A stretch of DNA of 64,000 nt from Omnitrophica bacterium RIFCSPLOWO2_12_FULL_50_11 (GCA_001804315.1 MHFT01000050.1:4600-68599), one strand, 5' to 3'. Numbered from the stretch's first letter, positions 18,897 to 58,942 are shown. The notes: generated by a model from the letters alone, not told the origin. Numbers and translations are program-made.

Positions 18897-19027
18897 GTGT
18901 TTCATAAGTTCTTAACCAGGTTTGAGATTGCTTCGTCGGCCTTCGGCCTCCTCGCAAAGACGCGTCATTGCGAGCGAAGCGAAGCAATCTCAAACCTCAC
19001 GAAACCTGTCCTAAAACTTATGAAACG
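18897..19027. repeat. About 130-nt nested imperfect palindrome. Outer arms TTTCATAAGTT/AACTTATGAAA, inner arms GTTTGAGATTGCTTCG/CGAAGCAATCTCAAAC. Contains family-B motifs CCTCGCAAAGAC and GTCATTGCGAG
   Basis: Read directly from sequence. Lies between the helicase start and the maf stop. Confidence 0.75.
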
Positions 19028-19040
19028 CTGTACTACGCCT

Positions 19041-19664
19041 TTAGTGGATGGCCATTTTCGCAACGAACTCAACCTCTCTTCTGAGGACTCTTTTTTTTAT
19101 GGATCTCTTCGCAATGTTCTTGAGAATTTTCTCGACGGGAAGCCCTACGGCGTTTGAGAAGGAACCTTTCACTTCTTCAACGATACCCCTCTGACGGGAT
19201 TGGATGGCGTAAGCGCCTGCTTTATCCAACGGATTTACTTTCTGAACATAACTTTGGATGCCTCGCGCTGTGAGTCTTTTAAGGCGGACGGCGGTTTTCT
19301 CAAAAAAAACGGTTCTTTTGATAACGTGACCTCCGATGATTTTAAAAATCGCAACCCCTGTGTAAACGTAATGCCACCGGCCCTGAAGTCTTCCCAGGAT
19401 GAGGCGTGCCTCTCTTTGATTTGCGGGCTTGCCGAAAATCTTTCCGCCCAGGCAAACCACGGTGTCGGCCGCAAGAAGGGTTCCGTTTTTGACTTGCCCC
19501 GCACAGGAGTCAGCTTTCTTGACCGCATGAATTTGAACGATCCTGGAAGGCGGTGCCGTGGGCCTTCGGTCCTCTTCAAAATCCGGTTTAAGCATGCGGA
19601 AGGGAATTCCAACCCTTTTAAGAAGGGCTTTCCTTCGCGGGGAGGTTGATGCAAGATAAATCAA
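19041..19664 (-). CDS. maf: Maf-like nucleoside triphosphate pyrophosphatase (septum formation protein Maf). Start trimmed
   Basis: LIYLASTSPRRKALL, LLAADTVVCLGGKIFGKP, PLDKAGAYAIQ, VGLPV match Maf/YhdE. Confidence 0.75.
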   Translation of the reverse strand: MIYLASTSPRRKALLKRVGIPFRMLKPDFEEDRRPTAPPSRIVQIHAVKKADSCAGQVKNGTLLAADTVVCLGGKIFGKPANQREARLILGRLQGRWHYVYTGVAIFKIIGGHVIKRTVFFEKTAVRLKRLTARGIQSYVQKVNPLDKAGAYAIQSRQRGIVEEVKGSFSNAVGLPVEKILKNIAKRSIKKRVLRREVEFVAKMAIH

Positions 19665-20956
19665 GGAAGAAGACTCCGTGCCGCGCTTCGTCCCGCCACG
19701 GCCCCTGTGCTCCAAGACCATTGGAAATTAAATCCGCCGATGCGGCCGTCCACATCCAGGATTTCACCTGCAAAGTAAAGTCCGCTTACGAGTTTGGATT
19801 CCATGGTGGCGGCTTTTATCTCTTTAAGGTCCACGCCTCCCGCCGTCACTTCCGCCTTCTTGTAACCAAAAACGCTTTCTGCTTCCAGCGGATAATGAAG
19901 CAGGAAGCGGATCAGCCGCTTTTGGTTTTCGTTTGAAAAATTTTCAATCGACCGGGCTTCGCCGAGGGCGATTTTTTTAAGAAGCGTTTCGACGAACCGA
20001 GCGGGGAGTGAAAATTCCTTCGCGAGAAGATTCCTTACGAGTTTCTGGGGACGTGTCTTTTTCGCCGATTGAAAAGCTGCTTGAAGCGACTCGTCATTTT
20101 CCTCCGGAAGGAAACTGGCCCTGATTTCTGGATTTTCCTCCCTCTTGGCACTTGCCAAATGCCTGCTGATATTAAGTGCCGCGGGCCCGCTGAAACCAAA
20201 ATGCGTGAATAAAAAGGAGTCGCAGTACGCACAGACTTTTTTGCCGTTTCTAAAAAATGAAAGTTTTGCGTCAAGCGAAACACCGCTGAGACTTTTCCAA
20301 TCGGATTCATTCGTCAGGAGCGGTGTCAGCGCAGGAAAGGTATTCAAAAGGGTATGCCCGAAACCTTCAGCTATTCCGTAACCCGTGCCGTCACTCCCTG
20401 TGGCCGGATAAGAAAGACCCCCCGTCGCCAAGATGACCTTCCGCGCGCAAACAGCATCAGGACCCTCCGAACTTCTGAGATGAAACAAATCGCCTTCTTT
20501 TTTGATGGCCGTAATACGAGTACCTTTTTTCCACACAACCCCGAGCCGGTCCGTTTCCTTTAGAAGTGCCTCTAACACAGTTTTTGCGGAATGCGTCACG
20601 GGAAAGTATTTTCCACCAGTTTCACAAACGACCTTCACGCCGATTCCTTCAAAGAATTGGATGGTTTCTTGAGGGGTGAAGGCTTCGAAGACGTGTTTGA
20701 CAAAATGACTCGGACCTCCTTCGAAATCGGAGGGTCTCACTTCTTGGTTGGTGATATTGCACCGCGTCCCGCCCGACATGAGGATCTTTGCGCCGAGGGT
20801 GAGGCGCCCATCCAGAAGAAGAATGTTGAGCGGCACGCCGCGGGCCCGGGCGGTTCTTCCCGCCCAAATCGCGGTCATGAGCCCTGCCGCACCCGCTCCA
20901 ACGATGGCAATGCTAACGGGACTCTCTTCCACGGCGGAAATAGGGTACGGATTCAA
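19661..20956 (-). CDS. HI0933/BaiN-family NAD(FAD)-utilising flavoprotein
   Basis: N-terminal dinucleotide fold IAIVGAGAAGLMTAI; length and C-terminal GG...FAGE motif fit the aminoacetone-oxidase-like family. Confidence 0.7.
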   Translation of the reverse strand: MNPYPISAVEESPVSIAIVGAGAAGLMTAIWAGRTARARGVPLNILLLDGRLTLGAKILMSGGTRCNITNQEVRPSDFEGGPSHFVKHVFEAFTPQETIQFFEGIGVKVVCETGGKYFPVTHSAKTVLEALLKETDRLGVVWKKGTRITAIKKEGDLFHLRSSEGPDAVCARKVILATGGLSYPATGSDGTGYGIAEGFGHTLLNTFPALTPLLTNESDWKSLSGVSLDAKLSFFRNGKKVCAYCDSFLFTHFGFSGPAALNISRHLASAKREENPEIRASFLPEENDESLQAAFQSAKKTRPQKLVRNLLAKEFSLPARFVETLLKKIALGEARSIENFSNENQKRLIRFLLHYPLEAESVFGYKKAEVTAGGVDLKEIKAATMESKLVSGLYFAGEILDVDGRIGGFNFQWSWSTGAVAGRSAARSLLP

Positions 20957-21227
20957 TCAAGGCAAGTTTCTTTGCCTTGGGTAAGGCCTTCACAAAACAT
21001 TCGCGGACGAGGGCGTCGGTTCTCGTTTTGCAGGTTTCCTGATAAACCATCTCAAGCGGCTGCCGGGTTCGTGTGTAACGCGCCGCTTTTCCCTCCGCGT
21101 GCATTTTGAAGCGTCTTTCAATATCTCTCGTGATCCCGGTGTAAAGCGAACGGTCGCCGCATTTCAAAATGTAGAGAAACCATTTTCCGCTTCGCTTTTT
21201 CCGGGATTTTTTCTCTTTTGCCTGCAT
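20913..21227 (-). CDS. GIY-YIG nuclease superfamily protein (YhbQ/UPF0213-like). Start trimmed to MQAKEK
   Basis: WFLYILKCGDRSLYTGITRDIERRFKMH...; GIY-YIG core with the catalytic Arg. Confidence 0.6.
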   Translation of the reverse strand: MQAKEKKSRKKRSGKWFLYILKCGDRSLYTGITRDIERRFKMHAEGKAARYTRTRQPLEMVYQETCKTRTDALVRECFVKALPKAKKLALIESVPYFRRGRESR

Positions 21228-21289
21228 CCGTTCCAGCATTTGTTTGTACCGGTGTTTCATGTCGCGGGCCCTTGTTTAAAAGCACGGAT

Positions 21290-23146
21290 TTAATGTGTCA
21301 TCTTATCTGACCCCTTGATCGGCCTGTTCCGTGATTGACGCTTGCGCTCGTTTTCGGTCAGGTATCGTTTGCGCAGACGGATATTTTTCGGTGTGATCTC
21401 CACAAGTTCATCTTTTTCAATAAACTCCAAAGCGAATTCCAATGTCATTGCACGTGGCGCAATCAACTGAATCGCTTCGTCCGATCCTGAGGCACGCATG
21501 TTGGTCAGCTTCTTTTCTCGGATGGCATTCACAACCAAATCATGTCCTTTATGGTTGACGCCCACGATCATTCCCTCATAAAGATCGTCGCCGGGCCTTA
21601 CGAAAATCTCTCCGCGTTCCTGAAGACCCCAAAGCGCGTAAGCAACCGCCTTGCCAGTAGTTTGTGAAACGAGCACTCCCCACCGGCGTTTAGGCAAGGA
21701 ACCTTTAAACTTTTGATACTCGTAAAAGTTTTGATACATGACCCCCGTGCCGCGCGTCATCGTTAGAAATTCTCCCCGAAAACCAATGAGGGCCCGCGAC
21801 GGAATAAGAAACGCGAGACGAATCGCTGCTGCCTTACTGTGTTGCATATCTTTAAGTTCGGCTTTGCGGCTCCCAAGAGCCTGAATCACTACTCCCTGAT
21901 AACCGGGATCCACTTCCATGGTGATTTCCTCAACCGGCTCAAGCGTCTCGCCTTCGGCCTCCTTCAGAATCACCTGCGGCTGTGAAACTTCCAGCTCATA
22001 ACCTTCACGACGCATCGTCTCAATCAAAATAGAAAGGTGGAGTTCCCCTCGTCCTGAAATTTTAAACCGCTCGCTCCCCTCCACGGTTTCGACCCTGATG
22101 CCCACATTCATCATCGCCTCATGTTCAAGCCGCTCACGGATGTGGCGCGAGGTCAGAAACCGCCCGCCGTCTTTGCCGGCAAGGGGGCTCGTGTTATGCG
22201 AAAAGTACATAGACATCGTAGGTTCATCAATTTTAATGAACGCAAGCGCCTTGGGGTTTTCCGGGCTTGCGAACGTCTCACCGACTTTGACGTTTTCCGC
22301 CCCAGCGATGGAGACGATGTCACCGGCCAGGGCTTCGGCTGTCTCGAATCTCTTAAGGCCTTGGTGTTTCAGAATTTTGGTAACGTGGGCCCGCTCGAGC
22401 AAACCGTCGCGTTTGACAACCACAAAAGGATCGCCGATCTTCACCCTGCCGTGGAATATCCGGCCGGTCGCGATGCGACCCACATAGGAATCACAGTCAA
22501 GCATCGTTACCAACATTTGAAACGTCTCGTCGGTGTCGGCCACAGGCGGAAGCACTCGGTGCAGGATGGTCTCTAGGAGCGGCTTCATGTCCGGACTCTT
22601 TTGCTCAAGATCAAGCGTAGCCCACCCCTCCGTGGCCGAGGCATAAACCACCGGAAAATCCAGTTGTTCGTCAGTCGCATTGAGTTCGCAGAACAGGTCA
22701 AAGGTCATATCCGTTACTTCATGCGGCCGGGCATTTGGACGATCGACTTTGTTGACCACAAGAATGGGTTTTAGGTGCAGCTCTAAACACTTACGCAAAA
22801 CAAATTTGGTCTGCGGCATGGGTCCGTCAAAGGCGTCGACTAAGAGCAAAACGCCTTCTACCATACGGAGGATGCGCTCTACCTCACTGCCAAAATCCGC
22901 GTGGCCGGGTGTGTCGACAATGTTAAATTGTACGCCCCGATATCGAAAGGACGCGTTCTTAGAGAAAATGGTGATGCCGCGTTCACGCTCAAGGACATTG
23001 GAATCCATAATCGTCGTCTCGCCCTTTTTGAAGTCGTAAGCGCCCGTCTGCTTCAGCAGCGCATCGACCAGCGTGGTTTTCCCATGGTCGACATGCGCAA
23101 CGATTGCAACATTGCGTATTTCTTTGCGTCTTTTGAGTTGATGCAT
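21290..23146 (-). CDS. typA: Translational GTPase TypA/BipA. Start trimmed to [12 protein letters not shown]; the ORF track extends it 67 aa upstream
   Basis: [52 protein letters not shown] are BipA-specific (LepA has DHGKSTL). Five-domain length of about 618 aa. Confidence 0.85.
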
Positions 23147-23273
23147 AAGGGAAAAGGGGTTCCATCGCCCCGTGCCGATGGGCTCTATGATAACTCGGGT
23201 TTGAGAAATCTCTTCCCTAACGGAAATGGAAACGTACTTTATCCGTTGGACCCTATTGTGCCCCTCGCGGTTT

Positions 23274-23368
23274 CCCGTGGATTCCCCACGGGCAGAGCCC
23301 GTGGCACTAAAACTCCCACGCGCTCCGCGCGGTTTCTCGCCATTCACCCACGGGCTCAGCCCGTGGAA
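23274..23368. repeat. Cluster of four consecutive short GC-rich hairpins plus direct repeat CGCGGTTTC, in the typA 5' region
   Basis: CCCGTGGATTCCCCACGGG, CACGGGCAGAGCCCGTG, CGCGCTCCGCGCG, CCACGGGCTCAGCCCGTGG. Confidence 0.7.
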
Positions 23369-23432
23369 CTCAAAGCGGCGATTAGAGGGTCAATCTGAAG
23401 GTAGGCGAAAAATGAAGAGAAACCTTCCCTTT

Positions 23433-23600
23433 TTAGCGGCTGCTATCCTTGCGCTTTGCGAAGCACTCCTTGCAGTAGACCGGGCGGTTTCCGCTGGGTC
23501 TAAAAGGTACTTCGCACTCTTTCTGGCAGTCTGCGCAAACCGCCTTGAACATTTCCCTTGGTCTTCCGCCGAATCCACCACCACCTTGCTGAAATGCCAT
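23433..23600 (-). CDS. Small 55-aa glycine-rich zinc-ribbon protein (CxxC-x17-CxxC), absent from the ORF track
   Basis: MAFQQGGGGFGGRPREMFKAVCADCQKECEVPFRPSGNRPVYCKECFAKRKDSSR. Perfect SD AAGGAGG sits 9 nt upstream of the ATG at 23600. Confidence 0.6.
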   Translation of the reverse strand: MAFQQGGGGFGGRPREMFKAVCADCQKECEVPFRPSGNRPVYCKECFAKRKDSSR

Positions 23601-23978
23601 CTATAGTTCCTCCTTTTGGTTTACATAAGCTACTGAACACCTTCCAAATATCGTCCGTATTTGTACGATACTGAAGTGGCTCCCCGGCGAACACTCCAAA
23701 ACGTCCGGATACCAAGTCGCCAAGGGCGCCTGGAAGATCCGAGAATCTACGCCTCATTCTGAGCCGGAGATCTTTCGCCCCTTTCCGCCTCCGCCTCCGC
23801 CGGAGGACAGATGCGCCTCTGGCGCAAGAGGACGGATTCGTCCTTCGGCGAAAAACAGAGCGGCGGACCCGCCACGTTCTTTGGCGGGCGGGGCTCAGCA
23901 TGACGTCCGAAGGGGCCTCAGTAGGATGACGGAATAGCGTTGCCGTATGAACTCACATGCACCCTCAACAGACAAATT

Positions 23979-24009
23979 CCTTACAAAAAATGTAAGGTTC
24001 TTGTAGAAT
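23979..24009 (+). promoter_or_regulatory. Candidate sigma-70 promoter (TTACAA-17-TAGAAT) directly upstream of multi-hairpin element copy 1. Alternatively a 7-bp hairpin CCTTACA-AAAAA-TGTAAGG
   Basis: TTACAA 23981-23986, TAGAAT 24004-24009. Confidence 0.3.
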
Positions 24010-24017
24010 GAGTTGCT

Positions 24018-24271
24018 TTTAGTCCGGTTTTCTCATCAATTTGGCGGATTGATGAGAAAACCGCTTTGGACGCACGAAGTTGCGTCCACATGCACGCACG
24101 GGATGATCGACATCCCGGCGTGCAGTGCTGGCCCATAAAGGGCCGGCAAAGTTTTGCGCCCCTCTCAAAATGGGGCGCAAAAGACAACCCCTGTGGTACA
24201 AATGGACAAGCCCATTTGCACCACAGCCTCTTCGAGGGCATTTCTCATTGGCGATGAGAAATGCGGGTTAG
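24018..24271 (+). repeat. Multi-hairpin element copy 1 (254 bp). Seven consecutive perfect hairpins; includes a 59-nt insertion relative to copy 2
   Basis: Hairpins GGTTTTCTCATCAAT/ATTGATGAGAAAACC, TGGACGCA/TGCGTCCA, (insert CACGCACGGGATG/CATCCCGGCGTG, GGCCC/GGGCC), TTTTGCGCCCC/GGGGCGCAAAA, CTGTGGTACAAATGG/CCATTTGCACCACAG, GCATTTCTCAT/ATGAGAAATGC. About 95% identical to 46343-46536. Confidence 0.85.
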
Positions 24272-24349
24272 CTCCTGGCTACGAAGCGAATTTGAAACAC
24301 AAATTCATTCCCCAAGAAGGTTTGACAGGCATCGACCTACGGAAACCAG

Positions 24350-25243
24350 GTGCGAATCGAATCGATCGGTGAATTCGGTCTCATACGCTTGATTCAAGGG
24401 TGGCTCAACCAGCACATCCTGGATGATACCGCTGTCCTTCCGGCTCCAAGCGGCCGGAATCAATTGCTGACGATCGATACTTTGGTAGAGGGGGTCGACT
24501 TTCTGAGGGGAAGGGCAACGCCTGAACAACTAGGCTGGAAGGCGCTTGCGGTGAGCTTAAGCGATATCGCGGCCATGGGCGGGAAGCCAGAAGCAGCAGT
24601 GATTAGTCTGACGCTTCCCAGGCGGACACCGGTTCGGTTTGTCAGGAAATTTTATGACGGACTGCAAAAATTGGCGCGACGCTTCCAAGTTGCTCTGGTG
24701 GGCGGGGACCTTTCACGCGGTTCGAAGCTAAGTTGTTCCGTAGCCGTACTGGGTGAAGCCGGGCGCAAGCGAACCATTTTTCGGACCGGTGCCAAGGTTG
24801 GTGATTTCATCTGCGTCACAGGGCGGCTGGGGGGCTCCATTCTAGGCCGGCATTTGACTTTTATGCCGCGCATTAAGGAGGGACAGTTTCTCGCGAGAGG
24901 CGGCGTTCATTCGATGATCGATGTATCGGATGGTCTTGTCCAGGACCTGAATCATTTGCTTTCACAAGGAAAATTAGCCTATGCATTGGACGAGACTCAG
25001 ATACCGGTCACCCCCGCGGCACGAAAGCTGGCTCGGGGAAATTTCAAGAAGACCTTGGCACATGCTCTCACTGATGGTGAGGATTTCGAACTTCTCTTTA
25101 CGATCTCTCCGCGCCAGTTTCGTAAACTCCAGCCGCTTTGGAAGCGACGTTTCCGAACTCCAGTGTCGGTGATCGGCCGTGTGATTCGAAGACCCAAAGG
25201 GTGGAAAGCACCACAGGGGAGATGCGGTTTTCGACATTTTTAA
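24350..25243 (+). CDS. thiL: Thiamine-monophosphate kinase
   Basis: AIR-synthase-related fold. GEFGLIRLI N-terminus, DDTAVL, VKTDTL-like region, GGDLSRG. Confidence 0.75.
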   Translation: MRIESIGEFGLIRLIQGWLNQHILDDTAVLPAPSGRNQLLTIDTLVEGVDFLRGRATPEQLGWKALAVSLSDIAAMGGKPEAAVISLTLPRRTPVRFVRKFYDGLQKLARRFQVALVGGDLSRGSKLSCSVAVLGEAGRKRTIFRTGAKVGDFICVTGRLGGSILGRHLTFMPRIKEGQFLARGGVHSMIDVSDGLVQDLNHLLSQGKLAYALDETQIPVTPAARKLARGNFKKTLAHALTDGEDFELLFTISPRQFRKLQPLWKRRFRTPVSVIGRVIRRPKGWKAPQGRCGFRHF

Positions 25244-25261
25244 TACGAGGAGCACTAAAAA

Positions 25262-27552: not shown

Positions 27553-27561
27553 GCTGCACAC

Positions 27562-28104
27562 ATGACGTTTCGTATTCTTCATTACGACACCGTAGATTCA
27601 ACCAATAATTTGGCGCGTGCTCTTGCGGAACGAGGCGCTCGGGAAGGAACCGTGATTGTCGCCGATTATCAAACCCACGGCCGCGGCCGTTTTCAGCGGC
27701 GTTGGTATTCGCCGCGCGGGGCTGGTTTGCTCTTTTCCATCATTTTAAGGCCTCGGTTTCAGTCCTCCAAGGCTTCTATATTGACCCATGTGGCGGCACA
27801 GGCCGTTCGGGAGACACTTGAGAAACAATTTGGTTTACAGGCCCGGCTGAAGAAACCGAATGACGTGGTTGTCGGAGGAAAAAAAATTGCTGGTGTTCTC
27901 GCAGAGGCTAGTGGCCAGCAACGTACCTTATCCTACGTGGTCATCGGGATAGGCCTCAACGTCAATACGAAGGCAAAGGATCTTTTGCAGACCGCGACGT
28001 CTATGTACGTGGAAACAGCTGGACGGCTTGAGCTACATTCTATTCTCAATTCAGTGCTCGGAATTTTCGGCAGGATGTATGTGGGGATCATCGCCCACCA
28101 TTGA
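27562..28104 (+). CDS. birA: Biotin--protein ligase catalytic domain (group I BirA-like, no N-terminal HTH, short C-terminus)
   Basis: GRGRFQRRWYSPRGAGLLFSIIL (GRGRxGRxWxSPxG). The last codons overlap a family-A repeat. Confidence 0.75.
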   Translation: MTFRILHYDTVDSTNNLARALAERGAREGTVIVADYQTHGRGRFQRRWYSPRGAGLLFSIILRPRFQSSKASILTHVAAQAVRETLEKQFGLQARLKKPNDVVVGGKKIAGVLAEASGQQRTLSYVVIGIGLNVNTKAKDLLQTATSMYVETAGRLELHSILNSVLGIFGRMYVGIIAHH

Positions 28105-28133
28105 TACGCAAGCAACAAAATGGTGGGGGATCA
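28083..28133. repeat. Family-A element (degenerate) overlapping the birA 3' end: GATCATCGCCCACCATT - 18-nt loop - AATGGTGGGGGATCA
   Basis: Loop GATACGCAAGCAACAAAA shares TTGCGTA (as rc) with the other copies. Confidence 0.75.
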
Positions 28134-34952: not shown

Positions 34953-34992
34953 CTTTTCACCCTTCTTTCCAAGTAAAGAGGGGTGAAAAGTC
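34951..34992 (+). terminator. 12-bp stem hairpin immediately after the IMPDH-like stop (GACTTTTCACCC...GGGTGAAAAGTC). Terminator-like but with no U-run
   Basis: Perfect inverted repeat read from sequence; the stop codon TGA lies in the left arm. Confidence 0.35.
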
Positions 34993-35102
34993 ATTGCATG
35001 GATCGCATCCTCGCAATGACGGCTGCGGTGGGCTTCTCCCTCGGAATGACGGTGCAGTGCAAGGCCGTCGGCTACCGTTTGGCATGCTGGCCTCGCCATG
35101 AC
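34990..35102. repeat. Family-B fragment array: partial GTCATTGC, then three direct copies of the CCTCGCAATGACGG-like terminal motif (35008, 35038, 35091). The last supplies the guaA ATG
   Basis: CCTCGCAATGACGG, CCCTCGGAATGACGG, CCTCGCCATGACAA. Confidence 0.7.
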
Positions 35103-36660: not shown

Positions 36661-36706
36661 CGTCATCCTGAGCCCGCCACGATTTGCGGCGGGCTCAGGA
36701 TGACGG
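36661..36706. repeat. Perfect 18-bp-stem hairpin CGTCATCCTGAGCCCGCC-ACGATTTGC-GGCGGGCTCAGGATGACGG, related to family B by the shared GTCAT...ATGACGG termini
   Basis: Read from sequence. The ATG at 36700 inside the right arm is the ORF-track start of dnaE. Confidence 0.8.
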
Positions 36707-39700
36707 ATGGTTTTGGTGTGGGAATCGCTATGTCGCATGTTGATTTTGCTCATCTTCATTGTCATACGCAATTTTCTCTGCTGGATGCAACTTCAAAGAT
36801 ACCGCAGTTACTTAAACGAGCGGTGGATCTTCATTTTCCCGCGCTCGCCGTCACCGACCACGGCAATTTATTTGGCGCCATTTCTTTTTACGAAGAGGCC
36901 ATGCGGCAAGGAATCAAGCCCATTATCGGTATGGAAGCCTACGTAGCGCCTAAATCACGTTTTGACCGAACAGCTCACGGGATTAAAGAGGCTTCCTTTC
37001 ATCTGACGCTCTTATGCCGAAATGAAGTTGGGTATAAGAATTTGCTCAAACTGACCACTGCAAGTTACCTCGAAGGTTTCTATTATCGGCCTCGAATGGA
37101 TAAAGAGCTCCTTGCCAAACATCGCGAAGGATTGATCGCCCTCTCCGGTTGCTTGAAGGGGGAGGTACCCTACCATACGTGGCACGAACAATTGGACAAA
37201 GCAGAGGAGGCAATACGCGGATATATCGACATATTTGGAACCGAGAACTTTTATCTGGAGCTCATGGACCAAGGAATTGAAGCGCAGCAGAAACTTTTCC
37301 AGCACTATCCGAATTTTGCGCGCGCATTCGGCTTGAAACTCGTCGCGACGAATGATTGCCATTACATTCAACGTACGGATGCCGTGTCCCACGATGCCTT
37401 GATCTGCATCGGAACCGGTTCGCTCATTTCCGACGAAGACCGGATGCGGTACCACGGAGACCAGTTCTATTTAAAATCGGCGGAAGAAATGAAATCTCTG
37501 TTCCAAGGAGTTCCGGGAGCGGTTCGGAACACGATTGAAATCGTGGATCGGTGCAATTTGGAGATGGATTTCACGAAAACGCATCTTCCTATTTTTACGC
37601 CCCCAAATGGAAAAAAACAGGAAGGCTACCTTGAAGAACTGTGTTGCGAGCTGCTCAGAAAAAAAATGGGCGAGCAGATTCCTCAAGGGTATGTGGATCG
37701 GCTCCGCCACGAGCTGTCGGTGATTCGGAAGATGGGTTTTTCAGGTTACTTCTTAGTCGTGTGGGATTTTGTCCGCCATGCGCGCGAAAATTATGTTCCC
37801 GTAGGGCCGGGCCGGGGTTCTGTTGCAGGAAGCCTGGTCGCTTATGTCTTGGGGATTACGAGTTTGGATCCGATTCGACACGGTTTGATTTTCGAACGCT
37901 TCCTCAATCCAGAACGAATTTCGATGCCTGACATTGATATTGATTTTTGTTACGAGCGCCGCGATGAAGTCATCAACTATGTCGGCAAAAAATACGGCGA
38001 AGAAAGTGTAGCGCATATCATTACGTTTGGAACCATGGCAGCACGAGCGGTGATTCGGGATGTTGGACGCGTCATGGGGGTGAGTTATCAGGAAGTAGAT
38101 CAGCTTGCAAAACTGATTCCTGCCGAGTTGGACATGACGATCGATCGGGCGCTGCATATGGAGCCCAGGCTCAGAGATTTGGTAAATTCAGATGAGCGAG
38201 TTCGGAAACTCATCGAGACTTCGAAAGCACTTGAGGGGCTCTCACGTCACGCTTCCACCCATGCCGCAGGAATCGTCATTTCAGAAGGACCGCTCTCCGA
38301 TCATAGCCCGTTGTTTAAGGCCAATGACCAAATCACGACCCAATACGATATGGGAGCGGTTGAGCGCATCGGTCTTCTGAAGATGGATTTTCTCGGTTTG
38401 AAGACACTGACGGTAATAGACAAAGCCGCGAAACTTGTCCAGAGTCGCTGCGATGTTGAGATCGAAATTGAACGCATTCCACTGGATGATCCAGGGACCT
38501 ATCAAATGTTAGGCCGCGGGGAAGCGATTGGGGTGTTTCAGCTGGAAAGTTCGGGCATGCGAGACCTGTTACGGAAGATGAAACCGAGTCGTTTCGGGGA
38601 TCTTGTGGCTTTGCTCGCGCTTTTTCGTCCCGGGCCGATTGGGAGCGGTATGATTGATGATTTCATTCGAAGGATGCACAATCCTGCTTTGATCCAGTAC
38701 GATCACCCGGTTTTGGTACCGATCCTCAAGGAAACGTACGGCATTATTTTGTACCAAGAGCAGGTGATGCAGATTGTTTCAACGCTTGCGGGTTTCAGCA
38801 TGGCGAAAGCCGATTCACTCAGACGAGCGATTGGCAAAAAGATTCCTGAAATTATGGAACGTGAGAAAAAATCGTTCATCGACGGCGCGACGAAGAATCG
38901 AATTGACCCTAAAATCGCTGACCGAATTTGGAATCTAATCGAGTACTTTTCCGGTTACGGCTTTAACAAGAGCCACTCGACGGCGTATGCGTTCATCTCT
39001 TACCAGACTGCCTACTTAAAAGCGAATTATCCAAATGAGTATATGGCTGCCTTGCTCACATCAGAGCAAGACAATACGGACAAGATTGTTCGCTACATCG
39101 AGGAGTGCAAGCGGCTCCGGATTCCAGTGCTCCCGCCCTCCGTGAACGAAAGCTGCTCAGAGTTTGCCTGTGTCGGAGATACGATTCGGTTTGGTTTGAG
39201 CGCGGTAAAAAATGTCGGCCTGGGGTCTGTGGAGTCGATACTAGAAAGCCGCACAACGCAAGGTCGATTCAAGTCCTTACAAGATTTTACCGAGCGTGTC
39301 GATCTTCGGTTGTGTAATCGAAAGGTGCTGGAAAGTTTAATTAAGTGCGGGGCGTTCGATGATTTTGGATTGAAACGAGCGCAACTGATGGCCATGTTGG
39401 ATTCGGTGTTGAATGCGGGCGCAAGAGTCCAACATGATCGACAACGAGGTCAATTGTCCCTTTTGACGCAAATGGGGACAAAGGAGAGCTTTTTTGACAT
39501 TGTTACCTCGATCCCAAATGTTGAAGAGTGGGCTGAGAACGAATTGCTGGGCTATGAGCGGGAAATGCTCGGATTTTATGTGAGCGCGCACCCTCTTGCG
39601 AAGTATGAAAAAGCCCTTCGGACATTTGCGAGTGTGACGTCCGCTGGATTGCGAGATTTACGAGATCAAACGCAGCTGAGCATTGGTGGTGTCGTGAGTT

Positions 39701-40170: not shown

Positions 40171-40226
40171 TCCCCACCACTTTGAGGAATGTTACGGGGG
40201 ACGCACCTTAAAGTGGTGGGGGGATC
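40169..40226. repeat. Family-A hairpin element copy (ATCCCCACCACTTTGAGG - 18-nt loop - CCTTAAAGTGGTGGGGGGAT). The dnaE stop TAA overlaps its first base
   Basis: 19-bp stem, 18-nt loop AATGTTACGGGGGACGCA. Confidence 0.85.
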
Positions 40227-41805: not shown

Positions 41806-41860
41806 CAACGTCATGCGAGGCCAACAACCCAAGCAATGGCCGAAGTAATTGCAACTGCAC

Positions 41861-41954
41861 CGTCATTGCGAGGAAGCGAACCAGGCGAAGACGAAGCAAT
41901 CTCAGAACCTAGATTGCTTCGGCATTGCTTTGGGACTCAGCCTCGCAATGACGG
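41861..41954. repeat. Family-B nested inverted-repeat element: GTCATTGCGAGG ... GAAGCAATCT ... AGATTGCTTC ... CCTCGCAATGACGG
   Basis: Outer 12-13-bp arms at 41861-73/41941-54, inner 10-bp arms at 41893-902/41911-20. Creates a spurious 42-aa N-terminal extension of mtaB in the ORF track. Confidence 0.85.
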
Positions 41955-46342: not shown

Positions 46343-46536
46343 TTTAGTCCGGTTTTCTCATCAATTTGGCGGATTGATGAGAAAACCGCTTTGGACGCAC
46401 GAAGTTGCGTCCAAAGTTTTGCGCCCCTGTCAAAACGGGGCGCAAAAGACAACCCCTGTGGTACAAATGGACAAGCCCATTTGCACCACAGCCTCTTCGA
46501 GGGCATTTCTCATTGGCGATGAGAAATGCGGGTTAG
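46343..46536 (+). repeat. Multi-hairpin element copy 2 (194 bp, five consecutive perfect hairpins), between dnaG and rpoD
   Basis: Same hairpin series as 24018-24271 minus the 59-nt insert. Differences from copy 1 fall in loops (TGTCAAAAC vs TCTCAAAAT). Confidence 0.85.
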
Positions 46537-50837: not shown

Positions 50838-51150
50838 AATTTGGTGATGCGCGGTAGGGCTAGGAGATGATCGCTCCCGCCGGATTTGGGCGGGGGAGGA
50901 AAGTCCGGGCTCCATAAGGCAGAGTGCTCCGTAATTCGGAGGCTTACGTCCCGAAAGGGGTGTAAGACGGAAAGTGCCACAGAAAAAAAACAGCTCCTCA
51001 TTTTTTTGGGGGGTCAAGGTGAAACGGCGGTTTAAGAGACCACCGGTCCAACGGCAACTGCGGACGCATGGCAAACCCCACTTGGAGAAAGACTGAATAG
51101 AAGACGATCGGCTTGCCCTTAAAAGACGTCGAGCCAGGGAATAGCCTGTT
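50838..51150 (+). ncRNA. rnpB: RNase P RNA (bacterial type A, compact ~300 nt). Ends are approximate
   Basis: Universal P4 region GGAGGAAAGTCCGGGCTCCATAAGGCAGAGTGC; GGAAAGTGCCACAGAAA; GGTGAAACGGCGGTTTAAGAGACCACC; 3' P4 strand GATCGGCTT. TATAAT -10 at 50815. Confidence 0.8.
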
Positions 51151-51154
51151 CCCT

Positions 51155-51210
51155 GTCCCCCACCACTTTAAGGTGATAATCTTTGGACACACCTTAAAGT
51201 GGTGGGGGAC
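51155..51210. repeat. Family-A hairpin element (GTCCCCCACCACTTTAAGG - 18 nt - CCTTAAAGTGGTGGGGGAC), immediately 3' of rnpB
   Basis: Perfect 19-bp stem, 18-nt loop. Confidence 0.9.
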
Positions 51211-51271
51211 TAAAGTCTTGGGTTAGTCGCATGAGATTTCGTGAGAGCGGAATCCTAGACAGATGATCATC

Positions 51272-51327
51272 GTCCCCCACTACTTTAAGGTTCGTCCCCT
51301 GTGACATTCCTTAAAGTAGTGGGGGAT
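51272..51327. repeat. Family-A hairpin element (GTCCCCCACTACTTTAAGG - 18 nt - CCTTAAAGTAGTGGGGGAT). Carries a compensatory C-to-T / G-to-A pair relative to the copy at 51155
   Basis: Perfect 19-bp stem; CACTAC/GTAGTG here versus CACCAC/GTGGTG in the neighbouring copy. Confidence 0.9.
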
Positions 51328-51423
51328 TACAGAACTCGGCTTAACTTAGCGTTACCGCGCAATCTCCACTTTTGCACAATGTAAACGGGTGCGTGGCACC
51401 AAACTTTTTCTTGGTTTTTGCTG

Positions 51424-51567
51424 TTGACTCTGGCGGTTCTTTGAGGTATTATTACGCTCGTTCGCCTTTTAAACTGGTCCTGTGAGGCCGGAAAAGGTAT
51501 CAAATGAAAATCGAAAGACGAGAAAAGATTAAGATAAGCTCACTCAAATAGTGAGCTATTTTTTTAC
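51424..51567 (+). promoter_or_regulatory. pyr operon leader: promoter TTGACT-17-TATTAT, PyrR-binding loop (AAACTGGTCCTGTGAGGCCGGAAAAGG) and intrinsic attenuator terminator AGCTCACT-CAAAT-AGTGAGCT plus TTTTTTT
   Basis: -35 51424-29, -10 51447-52; GGTCCTGTGAGGCC matches the PyrR box consensus RUCCAGAGAGGCU; terminator at 51537-51567 lies 18 nt before the pyrR ATG. Confidence 0.7.
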
Positions 51568-51584
51568 CTACGAACTGGAACATT

Positions 51585-53085: not shown

Positions 53086-54416
53086 ACCTCCTAATTAAAC
53101 AAGTTCATATCATCGATCCGAAAAATGAAGTGGATGGCGTTTTTGATCTTTCGATTGAAAACAGCGTCGTCAGAGAAATCAATAAAGAAATTTCATCACA
53201 AGTAGGCGAAGTGATCGATGCGAAAGGCCTTTATCTGTTTCCTGGTTTGATCGATTTGCACGTTCATTTTCGTGAACCTGGTTATGAGCAGAAGGAAACC
53301 ATTCAAAGCGGCGCAAAAGCTGCTTTAAAAGGCGGATTTGTGGCGGCAGTCACGATGCCGAATACGAATCCACCCTGTGACCACCAAAGCGTCATTGACA
53401 ATATGATCCGAAAAGCGAACGAGGTGCCGTTTTACATTTATCCTGCCGCGACGTTGACGAAAAATCGAGCTGGTGGTGAGCTTTCTGAGATGGCGGATTT
53501 AAGGAAGGCAGGCGCCCGGGCGGTAACCGACGATGGAGATTGGATCAGTGATTCACTTCTGATGCGGCGGGCCATGGAATATGCCTCGATGCTGAATCTT
53601 TTGGTCGTTAGCCATGCTGAAGACAAGCGGCTCACGGCAATGGGGGCCATGAACGAGGGGATCATGTCCACTCAACTGGGTCTCAAAGGCATTCCGAACG
53701 CAAGCGAGGACGTGGCGGTAAGTCGAGACATTTTATTGGCGGAGCTCACGGGCGTACGGCTTCATTTAACTCATATCTCTACAAGAGGAGCGGTCGAGCA
53801 AATTCGACTGGCCAAAAAAAGAAAAATTTCGGTGACAGCTGATGTAACGCCCCATCACTTGACACTCACGGACGAGGCGCTCGCCGGTTACGATACAAAT
53901 TTTAAAATGATGCCGCCGTTAAGGACCGAGGCGGATCGGAAAGCGGTAGTCGACGGGCTCATAGACGGGACGATTGATGCGATTGCCACAGACCATGCGC
54001 CCCACACCGAAGAGGAGAAGATGGCGGAATTTCAAGATGCCCCAGTTGGCGTTACGGGACTGGAAACCGCTCTTGGGGTGGTGCTCACAGAGTTCTACCA
54101 CCGGAAGTTGATGGATCTAAACAGCGTCGTTCGACGGATGTCTGCGAATCCAGCGGAAATTTTGAAATTACCGCCTGGCTTTGGCGAGATCCGTGTTGGG
54201 ACAGAAGCAAACCTCACGCTCGTAGACGTCAATCAAGAATGGACGGTGAAGAAGGAAAACTTCGTTTCCAAGTCACAAAATTCTTGCTTCATCGGTAAGA
54301 AACTGAAAGGAAGAGCAGTTGCAACCATATGTCGCGGGCGGTTATGGCGCTTCGCCACACTGGTTCCTGAGGCGGTCGAGCAAGCACCGTTAAATCAATG
54401 CCGAAAGCAATCTTAG
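53082..54416 (+). CDS. pyrC: Dihydroorotase. Start trimmed to MNLLIKQ
   Basis: [12 protein letters not shown] metal-binding HxH, DHAPH. Confidence 0.85.
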
Positions 54417-55546
54417 GGTTAGAAGACGGGCTTGTCTTTGAAGGGAGTTCCTTTGGTGTGGAAGGGGAAGCCTACGGCGAGGTCGTCTTTAACACCTCGA
54501 TGTCGGGTTACCAGGAAATTTTGACCGACCCTTCCTACAAAGGACAGATTGTAACGATGACAAATCCGCACATCGGTAACTACGGTGTCAACCAAGCCGA
54601 TGTCGAGTCGCGGCGACCTTGGGTGGAAGGTTTTGTCGTGCGGGAACTGAGCTCGGTTGTGAGTAACTGGCGTTCCGAAATGTCACTTCCTGAGTATCTG
54701 GCCAACTGCAAGATCATCGGCATTCAAGGGATCGACACTCGAAAGCTTGTCAAACACCTAAGAGATCATGGCGCGAAGAAAGGGGTGCTTTCCACCGTTG
54801 ATCTCGATTCCAAACGCCTCGTCGTGAAGGCAAAAGATTCTCCCAGTATAGTCGGCATCGATCTTGTGAAAGAAGTGACATGTGAGAAGCCATACGATTT
54901 TCGTGAAACCCTGCCCAGTGAATTTCATTGGCCCGCTAAAGGCATGTCCACCTCTTATGCTGGGCCCAAGCGGCGTGAGCATTTTATCGTTTGTGTGGAT
55001 GGTGGAATCAAATGGAACATGTTACGGAAGCTCAATCAACACAACTTCCGCGTAAGAGTGGTTCCAGCCAATACGACTGCGGAAGATATTTTGGAACTAA
55101 AACCGGAAGGTGTTTTTTATTCAAACGGCCCTGGCGATCCGGAACCCGTAACGTATTTGTGGGGCGAGATGCGTAAGCTGATTGGAAAAATTCCGATTTT
55201 TGGGATTTGTCTTGGCCATCAGATGGTCGGTCTTGCGCTCGGCGGAAGGACATTCAAGTTGAAATTCGGCCACCGGGGCGGCAATCATCCGGTCCTGGAT
55301 TTGAAATCGAAACGGGTAGAAATCACCTCTCAGAACCACGGCTTTTGTGTCGACATGGATTCCCTTCCTAAGGATGAAATCGAGTGTACGCACATCAACT
55401 TAAATGATCAGACTCTTGAAGGCCTTCGACACAAGAAGTATCCCCTTTTTGCCGTTCAGTACCATCCGGAAAATTCTCCAGGACCTCACGATTCAGATTA
55501 TTTGTTCAGTCGTTTTTACGCTATGGTTGACCATGGCGTGTGGTGA
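54398..55546 (+). CDS. carA: Carbamoyl-phosphate synthase small (glutaminase) subunit
   Basis: N-terminal CPSase_sm domain, GATase catalytic Cys in GICLGHQ, HG...HPE. Confidence 0.9.
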   Translation: MPKAILGLEDGLVFEGSSFGVEGEAYGEVVFNTSMSGYQEILTDPSYKGQIVTMTNPHIGNYGVNQADVESRRPWVEGFVVRELSSVVSNWRSEMSLPEYLANCKIIGIQGIDTRKLVKHLRDHGAKKGVLSTVDLDSKRLVVKAKDSPSIVGIDLVKEVTCEKPYDFRETLPSEFHWPAKGMSTSYAGPKRREHFIVCVDGGIKWNMLRKLNQHNFRVRVVPANTTAEDILELKPEGVFYSNGPGDPEPVTYLWGEMRKLIGKIPIFGICLGHQMVGLALGGRTFKLKFGHRGGNHPVLDLKSKRVEITSQNHGFCVDMDSLPKDEIECTHINLNDQTLEGLRHKKYPLFAVQYHPENSPGPHDSDYLFSRFYAMVDHGVW

Positions 55547-55561
55547 AGGAAGCCTCGTTTT

Positions 55562-58500
55562 ATGCCAAAACGGACGGATATTAAGAAAATCCTGATCATT
55601 GGTTCCGGACCCATTATCATTGGGCAGGGGTGTGAGTTTGACTATTCAGGTTCGCAAGCCTGCAAGGCTCTTAGAGAAGAAAGCTATCAAGTTGTGCTCG
55701 TCAATTCAAATCCAGCCACGATCATGACGGATCCCGAAGTTGCTGATCGAACGTACATTGAGCCGATTACGTCCGAAGTGTTAGAGCAAATTATCGAGCG
55801 GGAACGTCCAGACGCGTGCCTCGCGACCATGGGTGGCCAAACCGGTCTCAACACGGCGGTGGAAGCGTATGAAAAAGGGATTTTTGACCGCTATGGCGTA
55901 GAAATGATCGGGGTGAATTATGCAGCCGTGAAGAAGGCAGAGGACCGACACGAGTTCCAACAGGCGATGCAACGTATCGGCCTTGATTTGCCGCGTTCCG
56001 AATGCGCCTATTCGGTGGAGGAAGCGATCGAAGCCGCGAAACGAATCGGTTTTCCCGTCGTCGTACGGCCAAGCTTTACCCTCGGCGGTTCTGGAAGCGG
56101 CATTTGCTTTAATGAGGACAGCCTTCGGCGAGTCGTCCGGCTCGGCCTGGAATACAGCATCGTGCGTGAAGTACTCATTGAAGAATCGGTTTTGGGTTGG
56201 AAAGAATATGAGCTTGAGGTGATGCGAGACTGTAGGGATAATTTTGTCGTCATTTGTTCCATTGAAAATTTCGATCCGATGGGAATTCATACGGGCGATT
56301 CGATTACGGTTGCGCCGGCTCAGACGCTTACCGATAAGGAGTATCAGAGAATGCGGGACGCCGCGCGGAGGGTCATCTCTGAAATCGGGGTGGAGACAGG
56401 CGGTTCGAATATTCAGTTTGCTGTTCATCCGGTGACGGGCCGTATGGTTGTGATTGAAATGAATCCGCGCGTTTCTCGGTCTTCAGCGCTTGCCTCTAAA
56501 GCGACTGGGTTTCCCATCGCAAAATTTGCAGCGAAGCTTGCCGTTGGGATGACCTTGGATGAGATTCCGAATGACATTACGAAATACACGCCCGCCGGTT
56601 TCGAACCGAGTATCGATTACTGCGTCGTCAAGGTTCCTCGATTTGCCTTTGAAAAGTTTGAGGGGGTAGACGACACGCTTTCGACACAGATGAAGTCTGT
56701 GGGAGAAACGATGGCGATCGGCAGGACTTTCAAGGAAGCGCTTCAAAAGGGCCTGCGGGGCCTCGAGATCAGGAGAAGTGGTCTTGGCGGCGACGGCCGT
56801 GACGAAATTTTTGGCGAAGAAATCAGTTCAAAGGAAGCGTTGTTGAAATTGATAGACCGCGCGAAGCAAGATGAACCCCTTCGAGAAAAGATTGCGGAGT
56901 ATCTCCGTATTCCAAAATCGGATCGACCATTTTATATTAAGTACGCCTTTTACGCAGGTCTGACCTCGCAAGAAATATTTGAGCTTACGAAGATCGATCC
57001 ATGGTTTCTGGAGCAGATCAGACAAATCGTCGAGATGGAAAGAGAATTGTTGTCTGTAGGGGCGCACGGCCGTGCGCCCCTACTCCTGCTACGCAAAGCG
57101 AAACAATTCGGCTTCTCCGATCAGCAAATTGCGTTCTACTGGGATCAAACGGAATCTGATATTCGTGCACTTCGCAGAGCGCACGGAATCGAGGCCGTCT
57201 ATAAACTCGTAGATACTTGCGCTGCGGAATTCAAGGCGTACACGCCGTACTTTTATTCGACCTATGAGGAGGAAGACGAGTCCGTTACAAGTGAAAAGAA
57301 AAAAATTATGATCCTCGGAGGAGGTCCCAACCGAATTGGACAAGGGATCGAATTCGACTACTGTTGTGTTCACGCGGCACTTGCGTTAAAAGAACTAGGC
57401 TATGAAACCATTATGGTGAATTCAAACCCCGAGACGGTCAGCACGGATTACGACACATCGGATAAACTTTTTTTTGAGCCGCTCACACTGGAGGACGTTT
57501 TAAACATAGCGGATCGTGAGAAACCGGACGGCCTCGTTGTTCAACTCGGGGGCCAAACCCCGCTTAATCTCTCGAGCGGCTTAGAAGCGGCCGGCCTCAA
57601 GATTTTGGGGACGTCTACGCGGTCGATTTATATGGCGGAGGATCGGAAGCAGTTTCGGGCCCTGCTCGACAAACTCGGAGTCCGGCAGCCAAAAAGCGAA
57701 ACCGTTTTTACAGCGGAGGAAGCCTTTCAGGTTGCTCAAGCCATTGGTTACCCGGTTCTGATCCGGCCTTCTTTTGTCCTAGGTGGGCGTGCGATGGAGA
57801 TTATTTATGATGACGTACAGCTGAAAAAATACATCCGGCATGCGGTAGAAGCAAGCGACAGAAAGCCGGTCCTGATTGACAAGTTTTTAGAAAATGCAAT
57901 AGAGGTGGACGTCGATCTCATTGGAGACGGGAAAAATTTTGTCGTGGGAGGAGTTCTGGAGCACATAGAAGAAGCAGGCGTTCATTCGGGCGATGCGGCG
58001 ATGGCACTTCCTCCGTTTACGCTTTCAAAAAAATTGATTTCCGAGCTCAAGGAAAAAACAAAACAACTCGCGGCTGAACTCGACATCGTCGGCTTAATGA
58101 ATGTCCAATACGCTATTCAAGATGGCGAGATTTATTGTTTGGAGGTAAACCCGCGGGCTTCTCGGACCGTGCCTTTCGTGAGTAAGGCCATTGGTATTCC
58201 ACTCGCGAAACTTGCTGCGAAAGTGATGATCGGCAAAACGCTCAAAGAGCTTGGGTTTACGGAGGAGGTGGTGCCGCGCCATTTTTCGGTCAAAGAGTCT
58301 GTCTTTCCATTTGTGAAGTTTCCCGGTGTGGATATCATCCTGTCACCGGAGATGAAATCAACGGGCGAGGTGATGGCGATTGATGAAGATTTTGACCTCG
58401 CGGTCTACAAATCCCAGCAGGCGGCATACTGCAGCGTTCCTGTTTCAGGGCGGGTGTTTATCAGCGTCAAGGATGAGGACAAAAAAAAGGTGGTTCCGGT

Positions 58501-58879
58501 AGCCCAAGAGCTTTTGCGGCTTGGATACGAGCTTGTGTCGACGCAGGGCACAAGTCGGGTTTTGGAAGCCCACGGTGTAAAAACCGAAGTCGTGAAGAAG
58601 ATTGCTGAAGGGCATCCGAATGTGGCCGACAAAATTCGGGCGAAAGAAATCGGTCTCGTCATTAACACGCCAACCGGTAAGGGGCCGATGTTGGATGAAG
58701 CAAAGATCCGTTCTCTCGCTGTTTCGTTTAACATTCCTTGTATTACGACATTGAACGCAGCCCGCGCCATTGTGCGTGCTGTGAAGTCATTCCGCAAGCG
58801 TGGACTGACTGTCAAGTCACTCCAAGAGTATCACGAATTGAACAGCAACGTCATTGCGAGGACGCAATTCAGGCGATGA
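55562..58879 (+). CDS. carB: Carbamoyl-phosphate synthase large subunit
   Basis: Two ATP-grasp repeats ([21 protein letters not shown] / [22 protein letters not shown]), oligomerisation and MGS-like domains. The last ~10 codons lie inside a family-B repeat. Confidence 0.95.
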
Positions 58880-58942
58880 CGAAGCAATCTTGCATTCTGA
58901 GATTGCTTCGGCAATGCTCCGGTACGCTGCCTCGCAATGACG
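58849..58942. repeat. Family-B nested inverted-repeat element spanning the carB stop and the pyrK ORF-track start
   Basis: GTCATTGCGAGG 58849-61, GAAGCAATCT 58881-90, AGATTGCTTCGG 58899-910, CCTCGCAATGACGG 58929-42. Confidence 0.85.

Follow-up and report, generated by a model that had tools for sequence, protein, structure and literature searches.

What are the nested palindromes that recur between housekeeping genes in a 64,000-nt stretch of Omnitrophica bacterium RIFCSPLOWO2_12_FULL_50_11 (MHFT01000050.1:4600-68599), a Candidatus Omnitrophota metagenome-assembled genome (MAG), and do they act on the genes around them? A preliminary description of this stretch (hereafter the window, with positions counted from its first nucleotide) had seen in them a modular and recombining element whose termini provide start codons. 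The sequences it quoted are all present where it placed them, and the flanking genes are those it guessed (helicase/maf, guaB3, guaA, dnaE, rsmE, mtaB, carB and pyrK). Our analysis confirms them as genuine copies of a short intergenic repeat that forms hairpins and is ordinary in kind, and it resolves each "nested palindrome" into two shorter units in inverted orientation, the unit being the basic entity. With a probability of roughly 0.7, we read the family as a dispersed, non-coding repeat of the repetitive extragenic palindrome (REP) type, whose best fit is to the CGTC-tagged REPs, a superfamily established by Di Nocera, De Gregorio & Rocco (2013, BMC Genomics 14:522; PMC3733652), as a variant that has not been described before.

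Architecture of the repeat unit

The unit is 26-45 nt long and follows the pattern YGTC-ATTGC-GA-[G…variable hairpin…C]-GAA-GCAAT-C-Y, that is, an unpaired YGTC tag, a 5-bp helix, a purine internal loop, a second helix and a short C-rich tail. The first helix opens with A-T and T-A, the internal loop sets GA opposite GAA or GA, and the second helix is closed by G-C and is free in sequence and length (2 to >8 bp); GTC in the tag, the opening A-T and T-A pairs and the purine loop are invariant. Core and loop counts given here refer to the matches listed. The segment between the anchors measures 5-44 nt and forms a hairpin in nearly every unit, with a G-C closing pair in 273/286 distinct cores and a mean run of consecutive end pairs of 2.69 in these 286 cores, compared with 0.57 in shuffles. 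The most frequent interruption within the core helix is a second tandem G.A layer.

Both helices covary, and the structure of the unit is conserved in this way. Among 42 distinct units of equal length, helix 2 shows double-sided changes in 5/6 pairs and 47 covarying cells, against 10.5 in shuffles (0/500 shuffles attain 47), and its covariation score of 0.27 falls to 0.02-0.06 when the partners are slid. Helix 1, which is perfectly complementary in 496/517 matches, covaries between subfamilies (TGC/GCA, TCT/AGA, CCT/AGG, TCC/GGA, CCC/GGG and TAC/GTA), every one of them having the form AT+NNN / N'N'N'+AT, with the outer-helix variants ATTGC/GCAAT, ATTCT/AGAAT, ATCCT/AGGAT, ATTCC/GGAAT, ATCCC/GGGAT and ATTAC/GTAAT. 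The most frequent unit in viral contigs is the 26-mer GTCATTGCGAGCGAAGCGAAGCAATC. Of the 181 viral units among the matches listed, 78 have a C and 95 a T immediately before GTC, and the 3' tail reads C + T/C + C/A, with CCA(G) in plasmid copies and many viral ones and CTC, CTT or CTA in the units of the window. Triloops account for 117/261 structured cores and are GNA in 71/117 cases; GNRA was seen in only 7/47 tetraloops. The commonest apical element is GCGAAGC, GCGCAGC, GCGTAGC or GCGGAGC, and longer stems likewise end in C-GNA-G. Units occur as singles, tandems, clusters and inverted doublets in both possible arrangements; because the two halves of a doublet often bear unrelated cores, it is the half that is the evolving entity.

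Copies in the window

The arm GTCATTGCGAGG occurs 17 times in the window at up to two mismatches (5/17 being exact), against 6.0 +/- 2.2 times in shuffled sequences, and 0/100 shuffles reach 17. A covariance model (R1), built solely from copies outside the window and then run on it, recovers exactly six strong units (E = 7e-8 to 3e-6; next match E = 0.19), a local density of six per 64 kb. All six begin with CGTC, and they form three doublets, accompanied by decayed copies. The tags point outward at 41860-41954 and 58848-58943 and face each other at 18924-18991. This last orientation accounts for the copy at 18897-19027 that had been described as a permuted b'-a'-a-b form, which is indeed the other inverted arrangement of two units. 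The three doublets fold into long hairpins (-28 to -42 kcal/mol, z -6 to -10).

The tags-facing doublet joins an intact minus-strand unit, GTCTTTGCGAGGAGGCCGAAGGCCGACGAAGCAATCTC, on the left (18924-18963; R1 35.6 bits, E = 2.9e-6) to an intact canonical plus-strand unit of the 26-nt type, CGTCATTGCGAGCGAAGCGAAGCAATCTC, on the right (18962-18991; R1 37.3 bits, E = 1.2e-6), the core of the latter being the commonest sequence type in viral contigs. Around it lies an outer 31-nt imperfect palindrome (I1, 81% complementary; 18893-19032, arms 18893-18923 and 19002-19032) situated between maf and a DEAD-box helicase gene, both on the minus strand; the whole region folds at -42.5 kcal/mol (z = -10), and the arms had no other occurrence in the sequences compared here. 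A metagenome contig (L258) starts inside this doublet, at about window position 18942; since this contig ends within the doublet, the repeats evidently break assemblies.

The rsmE-mtaB doublet has an intact type A unit (core GGA...GAC) as its left half (41860-41903, plus strand; R1 E = 1.1e-6) and an intact type B unit (core GGC...GCC) as its right half (41910-41954, minus strand; R1 E = 2.1e-7). It is preceded, immediately 3' of the rsmE stop, by a decayed third unit, ACGTCA-TGCGAGGCCA...TGGCCGAAGTAATTGC (41808-41852, plus strand; R1 10.8 bits, E = 1.8), whose helices are still recognisable despite the decay. The carB-pyrK doublet likewise consists of an intact type A unit (58848-58891, plus strand; R1 E = 3.3e-6), which supplies the final 9 codons of the carB ORF together with its stop at 58877-58879, and an intact type B unit (58899-58943, minus strand; R1 E = 7.1e-8), whose terminal ATGACGG holds a spurious pyrK open reading frame (ORF) start at 58937. 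These two tags-outward doublets are 86-87% alike, non-hairpin cores included, and the outer arms of such 94-nt doublets, CCGTCATTGCGAGG / CCTCGCAATGACGG, are perfectly complementary.

Host range and genomic context

The family is found far beyond Omnitrophota. A scan of viral contigs for the two anchors gave at least 120 contigs, and a scan of species-representative genomes with the heterodimer junction (26 fixed bases) gave at least 107 stretches, those among the matches listed coming from Omnitrophota, Gemmatimonadales, Planctomycetia, several Patescibacteria lineages, Chloroflexota, Bacteroidota, Desulfomonilaceae, Pseudobdellovibrionaceae, and Alpha- and Gammaproteobacteria. The family spans at least nine phylum-level groups plus phage contigs, with near-identical doublets in Omnitrophota, Gemmatimonadota, Planctomycetota, Patescibacteria, Chloroflexota, Bacteroidota, Proteobacteria and phage contigs. 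All of the listed stretches also conserve the outer anchors, on which the junction search placed no demand, and the cores differ. The doublet is present, too, on megaplasmids from Methylosinus, Methylobacterium and Novosphingobium, one Novosphingobium replicon having it at 40 or more positions. Genome-specific subfamilies exist as well. A metagenome scan for the lineage-specific junction returned exactly five further loci, all from one Joint Genome Institute (JGI) project and of equal GC content with different flanks, which brings the 94-nt doublets with lineage-specific cores to seven or more loci (two in the window, five in the JGI project). These five loci, chosen for carrying the doublet, hold 24 R1 matches in 59 kb, in clusters of up to 5 units.

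The perfect outer arms, together with the presence of seven copies of similar length with common internal sequence, could be taken to mean that the 94-nt doublets are miniature inverted-repeat transposable elements, with 13-14-bp outer repeats acting as terminal inverted repeats for a DDE transposase encoded elsewhere. We consider this quite improbable, as target-site duplication is absent at the seven doublets, singles, tandems and the opposite inverted arrangement all exist and leave no fixed element length, the doublet halves often have unrelated cores, and no DDE transposase recurs nearby in 227 loci.

The REP-type repeat that we favour sits after genes and avoids divergent promoter regions. 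Among 33 placeable doublets, 20 lie between codirectional and 12 between convergent genes, with only 1 in a divergent position, and the median distance from the end of the upstream ORF is 13 nt. In 65/68 pairs of single units from one viral contig, both units lie on the same strand. Neither single units nor doublets show an orientation bias relative to genes, single units being sense in 27 and antisense in 23 cases (9 vs 9 by contig).

A position just past stop codons and almost never in divergent promoter regions would also be expected of a functional RNA stem-loop, serving in mRNA protection from 3' exonucleases or in processing, roles that have been suggested for E. coli REPs, in which case selection on the RNA would fix the anchors. 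The long hairpins formed by doublets agree with this explanation, as do several phage contigs in which a unit lies 8-20 nt upstream of a ribosome-binding site and ATG, and Di Nocera et al. (PMC3733652) make the case for transcription of many REPs. With single units equally sense and antisense, however, transcription would in many cases turn the conserved purine loop into a pyrimidine one. The apical loops favour the GNA triloops characteristic of DNA over GNRA tetraloops, the same gene pairs are filled in one genome and empty in another, and no family in Rfam 15 is matched (in both gathering and E-value modes, the window and canonical viral copies gave chance-level miRNA and snoRNA matches only). 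An RNA function is thus a possible but unlikely explanation.

Gain and loss between relatives and strains

Syntenic loci of relatives were retrieved via the RsmE and PyrK homologues, the loci L121/L122 and L238/L239 coming from the same European Nucleotide Archive (ENA) and Logan samples, with identities to the window of 69% for RsmE and 81% for PyrK. The empty sites that a comparison with relatives was expected to reveal do exist. The rsmE-mtaB junction, which has three units in the window, is empty in L121 and L122, where the genes overlap (ATGGTTGA). The pyrC-carA junction is empty in the window, again with overlapping genes, and in L240, and is occupied by a tags-outward doublet in L238 and L241. 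At carB-pyrK, the doublet of the window contrasts with an empty site and overlapping genes in L240, with a window-like left arm followed by unrelated content including a GTAG REP in L238, and with a 13-nt spacer plus a sister-subfamily remnant within the carB tail in L241. The guaB3-guaA spacer holds decayed pieces that differ between the window and L121. Copies are therefore gained and lost at orthologous gene junctions. The evidence supports, as had been suggested, an intergenic, modular and REP-like family with insertion and turnover, and not a conserved leader. The conserved carA start ATGCCGAAAGCAATCTTAGGG (window 54398-54420) resembles the 3' anchor of the unit, CCGAAGCAATCT; as it adjoins the pyrC-carA junction that is filled by a doublet in two relatives, this likeness may reflect a target preference or be a coincidence.

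Change is also visible between strains. Over 16.7 kb outside the core of unit 41910-41954, the window and the contig L123 differ at 5 SNPs (single-nucleotide polymorphisms); within that core they differ by 2 substitutions and a 24-nt hairpin indel, the same core changes being present in L124. Strains that are otherwise 99.97% identical are thus set apart by this indel, and the apical region is the fastest-changing site of the comparison. A module of the form CCGCC-loop-GGCGG(ACCCGCC), which is the 24-nt piece that varies between strains, recurs in or beside Omnitrophota unit cores (L123/L124 10911-10934; L238 ~3110-3150; L241 5930-5985; window 23860-23890).

Start codons, gene ends and the pyr operon

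According to the preliminary description, the elements supply start codons and N-terminal extensions to neighbouring genes and drive local gene rearrangements, a proposal that we now regard as barely credible. It is true that the ORF-track ATGs at 58937, 36700 and 35098 fall within right-hand termini, that those at 58937, 36700 and 41836 are either within an element or 5' of one, and that automated gene calls for L123 use the long form of dnaE. PyrK homologues, however, are 254-258 amino acids long, and in relatives the protein starts MFDETVTILEN, equivalent to the window ATG at 58961 rather than 58937. DnaE in L121 begins MPHVDFAHLH, which corresponds to the ATG at 36731 rather than 36700. 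The MtaB profile begins only at residue 62 of the long ORF, and the automated call in L123 begins at the equivalent of ATG 41962, which is the likely mtaB start. As for guaA, its ATGAC start ATGACGAAC is also found in L121, where the rest of the motif is lacking, so the guaA ATG is native. Most of the apparent start codons would then be ORF-calling artefacts.

The gene end is a different matter. As had been noticed, carB does read into the element, by 13 codons of the left arm up to the stop at 58877-58879, and the CarB C-terminus of L238, ...EYHER-stop, differs from the element-derived tail in the window. The insertion of two genes into the pyr operon had been tied to the adjoining doublet, but these genes, a GCS2-like ligase and a class-I amidotransferase, follow pyrK and do not adjoin the element; both are common to L238 and L239 and are absent from the more distant L241. 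As they are already present in a relative at 81% identity, no link between element and insertion is shown. For annotation, the elements thus create false N-terminal extensions (pyrK, dnaE, mtaB), a real CarB C-terminal tail and contig breaks, and a covariance model of the unit would allow annotation pipelines to mask them.

Search for a mobilising enzyme and proposed mode of spread

All-against-all clustering of 1866 ORFs near units identified only phage structural proteins, UvrA and kinases as recurring neighbours, and no homologue of the REP-associated tyrosine transposase (RAYT) was found in the window or the viral loci. The locus L121 does have a gene (5129-5686) for a 185-amino-acid RAYT-like Y1 transposase between guaA and dnaE, where the window has the 36661-36706 hairpin. 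This gene is wedged in without spacer, overlapping the dnaE start. No units flank it, and its coding sequence contains a GTAG REP, GTAGGAGCAATTCATGAATTGCTCCTAC, encoding VGAIHELLL. GTCAT units occur beside 0/3 RAYT homologues examined: GTAGGGGCAATTCATGAATTGCCCCTAC-type REPs flank those from Geobacter (P0060) and a planctomycete (P0096), and another kind of repeat flanks P0104. Since two of the three carry GTAGGGGCAATTCATGAATTGCCCCTAC-type REPs and the L121 gene holds a GTAG REP internally, the L121 RAYT is best seen as belonging with the GTAG family. In L059 and L062, pairs of units arranged like a REPtron, with a spacing of about 580 nt, were considered as well and dismissed, for they enclose no plausible gene.

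As no transposase recurs in the 227 loci and the L121 enzyme fits the GTAG family, the mobilising mechanism is proposed here by analogy. The unit would fold as single-stranded DNA (ssDNA), as suggested by its C-G-closed GNA triloops and tandem G.A pairs, which are hallmarks of very stable DNA mini-hairpins. GCGNAGC is a known "extraordinarily stable" DNA mini-hairpin (PMC13037366; PMC3201870), d(GCGNAGC) melting at about 76 C, compared with 39 C for r(GCGAAAGC) (PMC13037366). The folded unit may then be copied or moved in trans by a putative strand-specific enzyme that recognizes tag and hairpin, as RAYT does for GTAG REPs, with the effects on neighbouring genes (the carB tail; rsmE and mtaB pulled apart) arising as by-products.

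Mini-hairpins of this type are also present in the phage G4 origin and in RSF1010 ssiA (PMC13037366), and the units might for this reason be regarded as strand-specific ssDNA replication signals, such as priming or primosome-assembly sites. Apical hairpins of the GCGNAGC / CCGAAGG type and the restriction of single units to one strand within a contig would suit such a role. It is nonetheless most unlikely, because most chromosomal copies are inverted doublets and hence have no net strand, orthologous sites are often empty, and the apical hairpin is the least conserved part, the copies in the window lacking a clean mini-hairpin. We favour, over an RNA function, a strand-specific process at the DNA level that spreads a REP-type repeat, on the grounds of the GNA triloops, the stability of GCGNAGC, the equal numbers of sense and antisense units and the shared strand within a viral contig.

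Several observations weigh against this reading of a REP-type repeat that spreads as folded ssDNA. In the 227 loci, no transposase or nuclease recurs near units, and the one RAYT-like candidate, that of L121, was rejected as the cognate enzyme given the GTAG REPs that flank its homologues. Isolated units have unremarkable nearest-neighbour energies (z -2.5 to +1.0), and the long cores of the window units are poorly structured; as standard energy models rate isolated units not unusually stable, the DNA-level process remains for us an interpretation. Doublet orientation is weakly biased with respect to local GC skew (66 vs 40 loci, which are non-independent). The L238 left arm CGTCATTGCGAGGA has an offset from carB identical to that in the window, although the flanks have diverged, which could indicate inheritance under constraint rather than reinsertion. 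Finally, the other two doublets of the window are identical, without presence/absence difference, in about five independent strain-level contigs each. These two unchanged doublets give no sign of recent hyperactivity, and mobility is accordingly deduced only from relatives at about 80% DNA identity.

About 20 bases are invariant across at least nine phylum-level groups and phage contigs, and the tip varies freely, though REPs are usually lineage-specific; this combination implies a conserved recognising factor. We tentatively suggest, as an idea that is more likely wrong than right, a pan-bacterial, phage-borne structured ssDNA module with an invariant GTC tag, a tandem-GA core and a free apical hairpin that gains and loses small hairpin modules, recognised and spread by enzymes of a class that has so far not been connected with REPs. 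If true, this would resolve the "orphan" status of CGTC repeats, and the presence of the family in the tiny genomes of Patescibacteria and in phages would point to phage-borne or very compact machinery. As the family is abundant and easy to find, phylogenetic profiling is now a practical way to seek the mobilising enzyme.

Decayed copies and other repeats

The window also holds a sister subfamily and fragments. The perfect 18-bp hairpin reported between guaA and dnaE is confirmed at 36661-36706 (I7, 100% complementary). It combines CGTCATCCTGAG with a CCCGCC hairpin, folds at -25.1 kcal/mol (z = -9.8) and holds in its ATGACGG the spurious dnaE ORF start at 36700; the continuous ATCCTGAG/CTCAGGAT stem is exclusive to it. 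The "singletons" noted near 3829 and 23880-23930 are present, but they are merely weak fragments of the sister subfamily GTCATYCTGAG. One consists of decayed remains at 23835-23932 (minus strand), with CGTCATGCTGAGC at 23893-23905 (minus) and CCTCAGTAGGATGACGG at 23916-23932 (plus); the other is a very weak fragment, GGCGGGCAGAGGAGATGACG, at 3804-3824 (plus), in which only a terminal ATGACG and a GGCGGG module are recognisable. A direct repeat (D15) connects 3774-3802 with 23795-23823. Judged by sequence, the 36661-36706 hairpin and the fragments at 23893-23932 and ~3804-3824 belong to the sister subfamily with the ATCCT helix. In the guaB3-guaA spacer, two 5' arms form a small palindrome, GTCATTGC...GCAATGAC (34990-35020; weak R1 match to a decayed unit at 34999-35022, minus strand, E = 0.56). 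Two arm-like motifs follow within 35039-35102 (minus strand), GTCATTCCGAGG (35039-35050) and GTCATGGCGAGG (35091-35102); the latter overlaps the genuine guaA start ATG at 35098. The three-copy array of the terminal motif described here can be found at 35009-35102, with 0, 1 and 1 mismatches, and its third copy (35091-35102) is probably the native guaA start region.

Other repeats were noticed in passing. The carB ORF contains, in frame, a perfect 14+14 REP of the GTAG type, GTAGGGGCGCACGG/CCGTGCGCCCCTAC (57056-57083), in a linker where relatives bear other insertions; the sequence GVGAVHEPPL found there in L241 also looks REP-derived. The class-A RNase P RNA (50855-51358) is 504 nt long, compared with a 367-position model, and has two large insertions that contain another palindromic family, GTCCCCCACCACTTTAAGG / CCTTAAAGTGGTGGGGGAC, with repeats at 51155-51210 and 51273-51326 and a further occurrence at 40172-40222. 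About 195 nt of intergenic sequence are present twice, with 98-100% identity (24018-24271 and 46343-46536). This segment includes a 16-bp hairpin, CGGTTTTCTCATCAAT/ATTGATGAGAAAACCG, and has one copy upstream of an AIR-synthase-related gene (24350) and the other upstream of the sigma-70 gene (46543). A further family, GGGGATGATCCCCCACC...GGTGGGGGAT, has three copies at gene junctions (2227-2275, 7061-7109 and 28083-28131), and two 19-nt palindromes, CCACGGGCAGAGCCCGTGG and CCACGGGCTCAGCCCGTGG, lie 43 nt apart (23286-23366) at the 5' end of the minus-strand ORF 21290-23347.

Comparison with known systems

Some familiar structures can be set aside. The doublets are not intrinsic (Rho-independent) terminators, as no T-run follows them; the inner hairpin at 41892-41921 taken alone, with its tail GCATTGCTTT, passes a lax terminator scan. 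By inspection, hammerhead, hairpin-ribozyme and kink-turn readings of the GA/GAA core were rejected, the CUGANGA element and the 3-nt bulge geometry being absent. Integron attC sites share with the present unit a folded single-strand site in which termini and structure are conserved and the centre is free in sequence and length; unlike attC, however, the unit has no R/L boxes (GTTRRRY), integron integrase or cassette context, and its copies lie among housekeeping genes, so the likeness would be an analogy of principle only. The d(GCGNAGC) mini-hairpins of Hirao and co-workers have exactly the form of the commonest apical elements, but they are a physical motif rather than a repeat family and match the tip of the unit only.

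The GTAG REPs and REPINs (E. coli REP/BIME, Pseudomonas REPIN) are closer. They too consist of a short hairpin with a 4-nt tag at its foot, and mismatches allow its two strands to be told apart. They likewise form clusters and inverted doublets, are spread between the genes of a genome and have a proposed ssDNA mechanism. They differ in their tag, which is GTAG (GT[AG]G) and not YGTC, and in being usually lineage-specific, whereas the anchor sequence described here is common to many phyla. Separate GTAG REPs coexist with the family in the same genomes.

The closest likeness is to the CGTC-tagged REPs, a superfamily that includes Neisseria dRS3 and Rickettsia RPE-4/RPE-6 (PMC3733652). In both, one end has an unpaired CGTC/TGTC tag (CCTC being a further variant in the superfamily), the stem opens with A-T, T-A, and inverted dimers, often heterodimers, are frequent. 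The short C-rich tail may be another likeness: it is mostly CCA in the superfamily and is CCA in the alphaproteobacterial and many viral copies of the present family, but not in the units of the window. Both are dispersed in multiple copies downstream of genes, between unidirectional or convergent genes, and both combine an unusual cross-phylum similarity with the lack of a linked transposase. They even share a host, Novosphingobium aromaticivorans, which is listed in PMC3733652 and carries the present family. The four CGTC families described there have uninterrupted 8-9-bp stems and 4-5-nt loops (PMC3733652), whereas in the present unit the stem is 5 bp long and gives way, through a conserved GA/GA(A) internal loop, to a second helix that is free in length and has mostly 3-nt loops; clusters are common in it, and Omnitrophota, Patescibacteria, Gemmatimonadota, Planctomycetota and phage contigs are absent from the reported host range. 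The unit sequence and its typical translated peptides were not found in PMC3733652, its supplements or the searchable literature. Because the features match those of the CGTC REPs while the stem differs and the sequence is new to that study, to Rfam 15 and to the searchable literature, we file the family as a new variant within a known kind.

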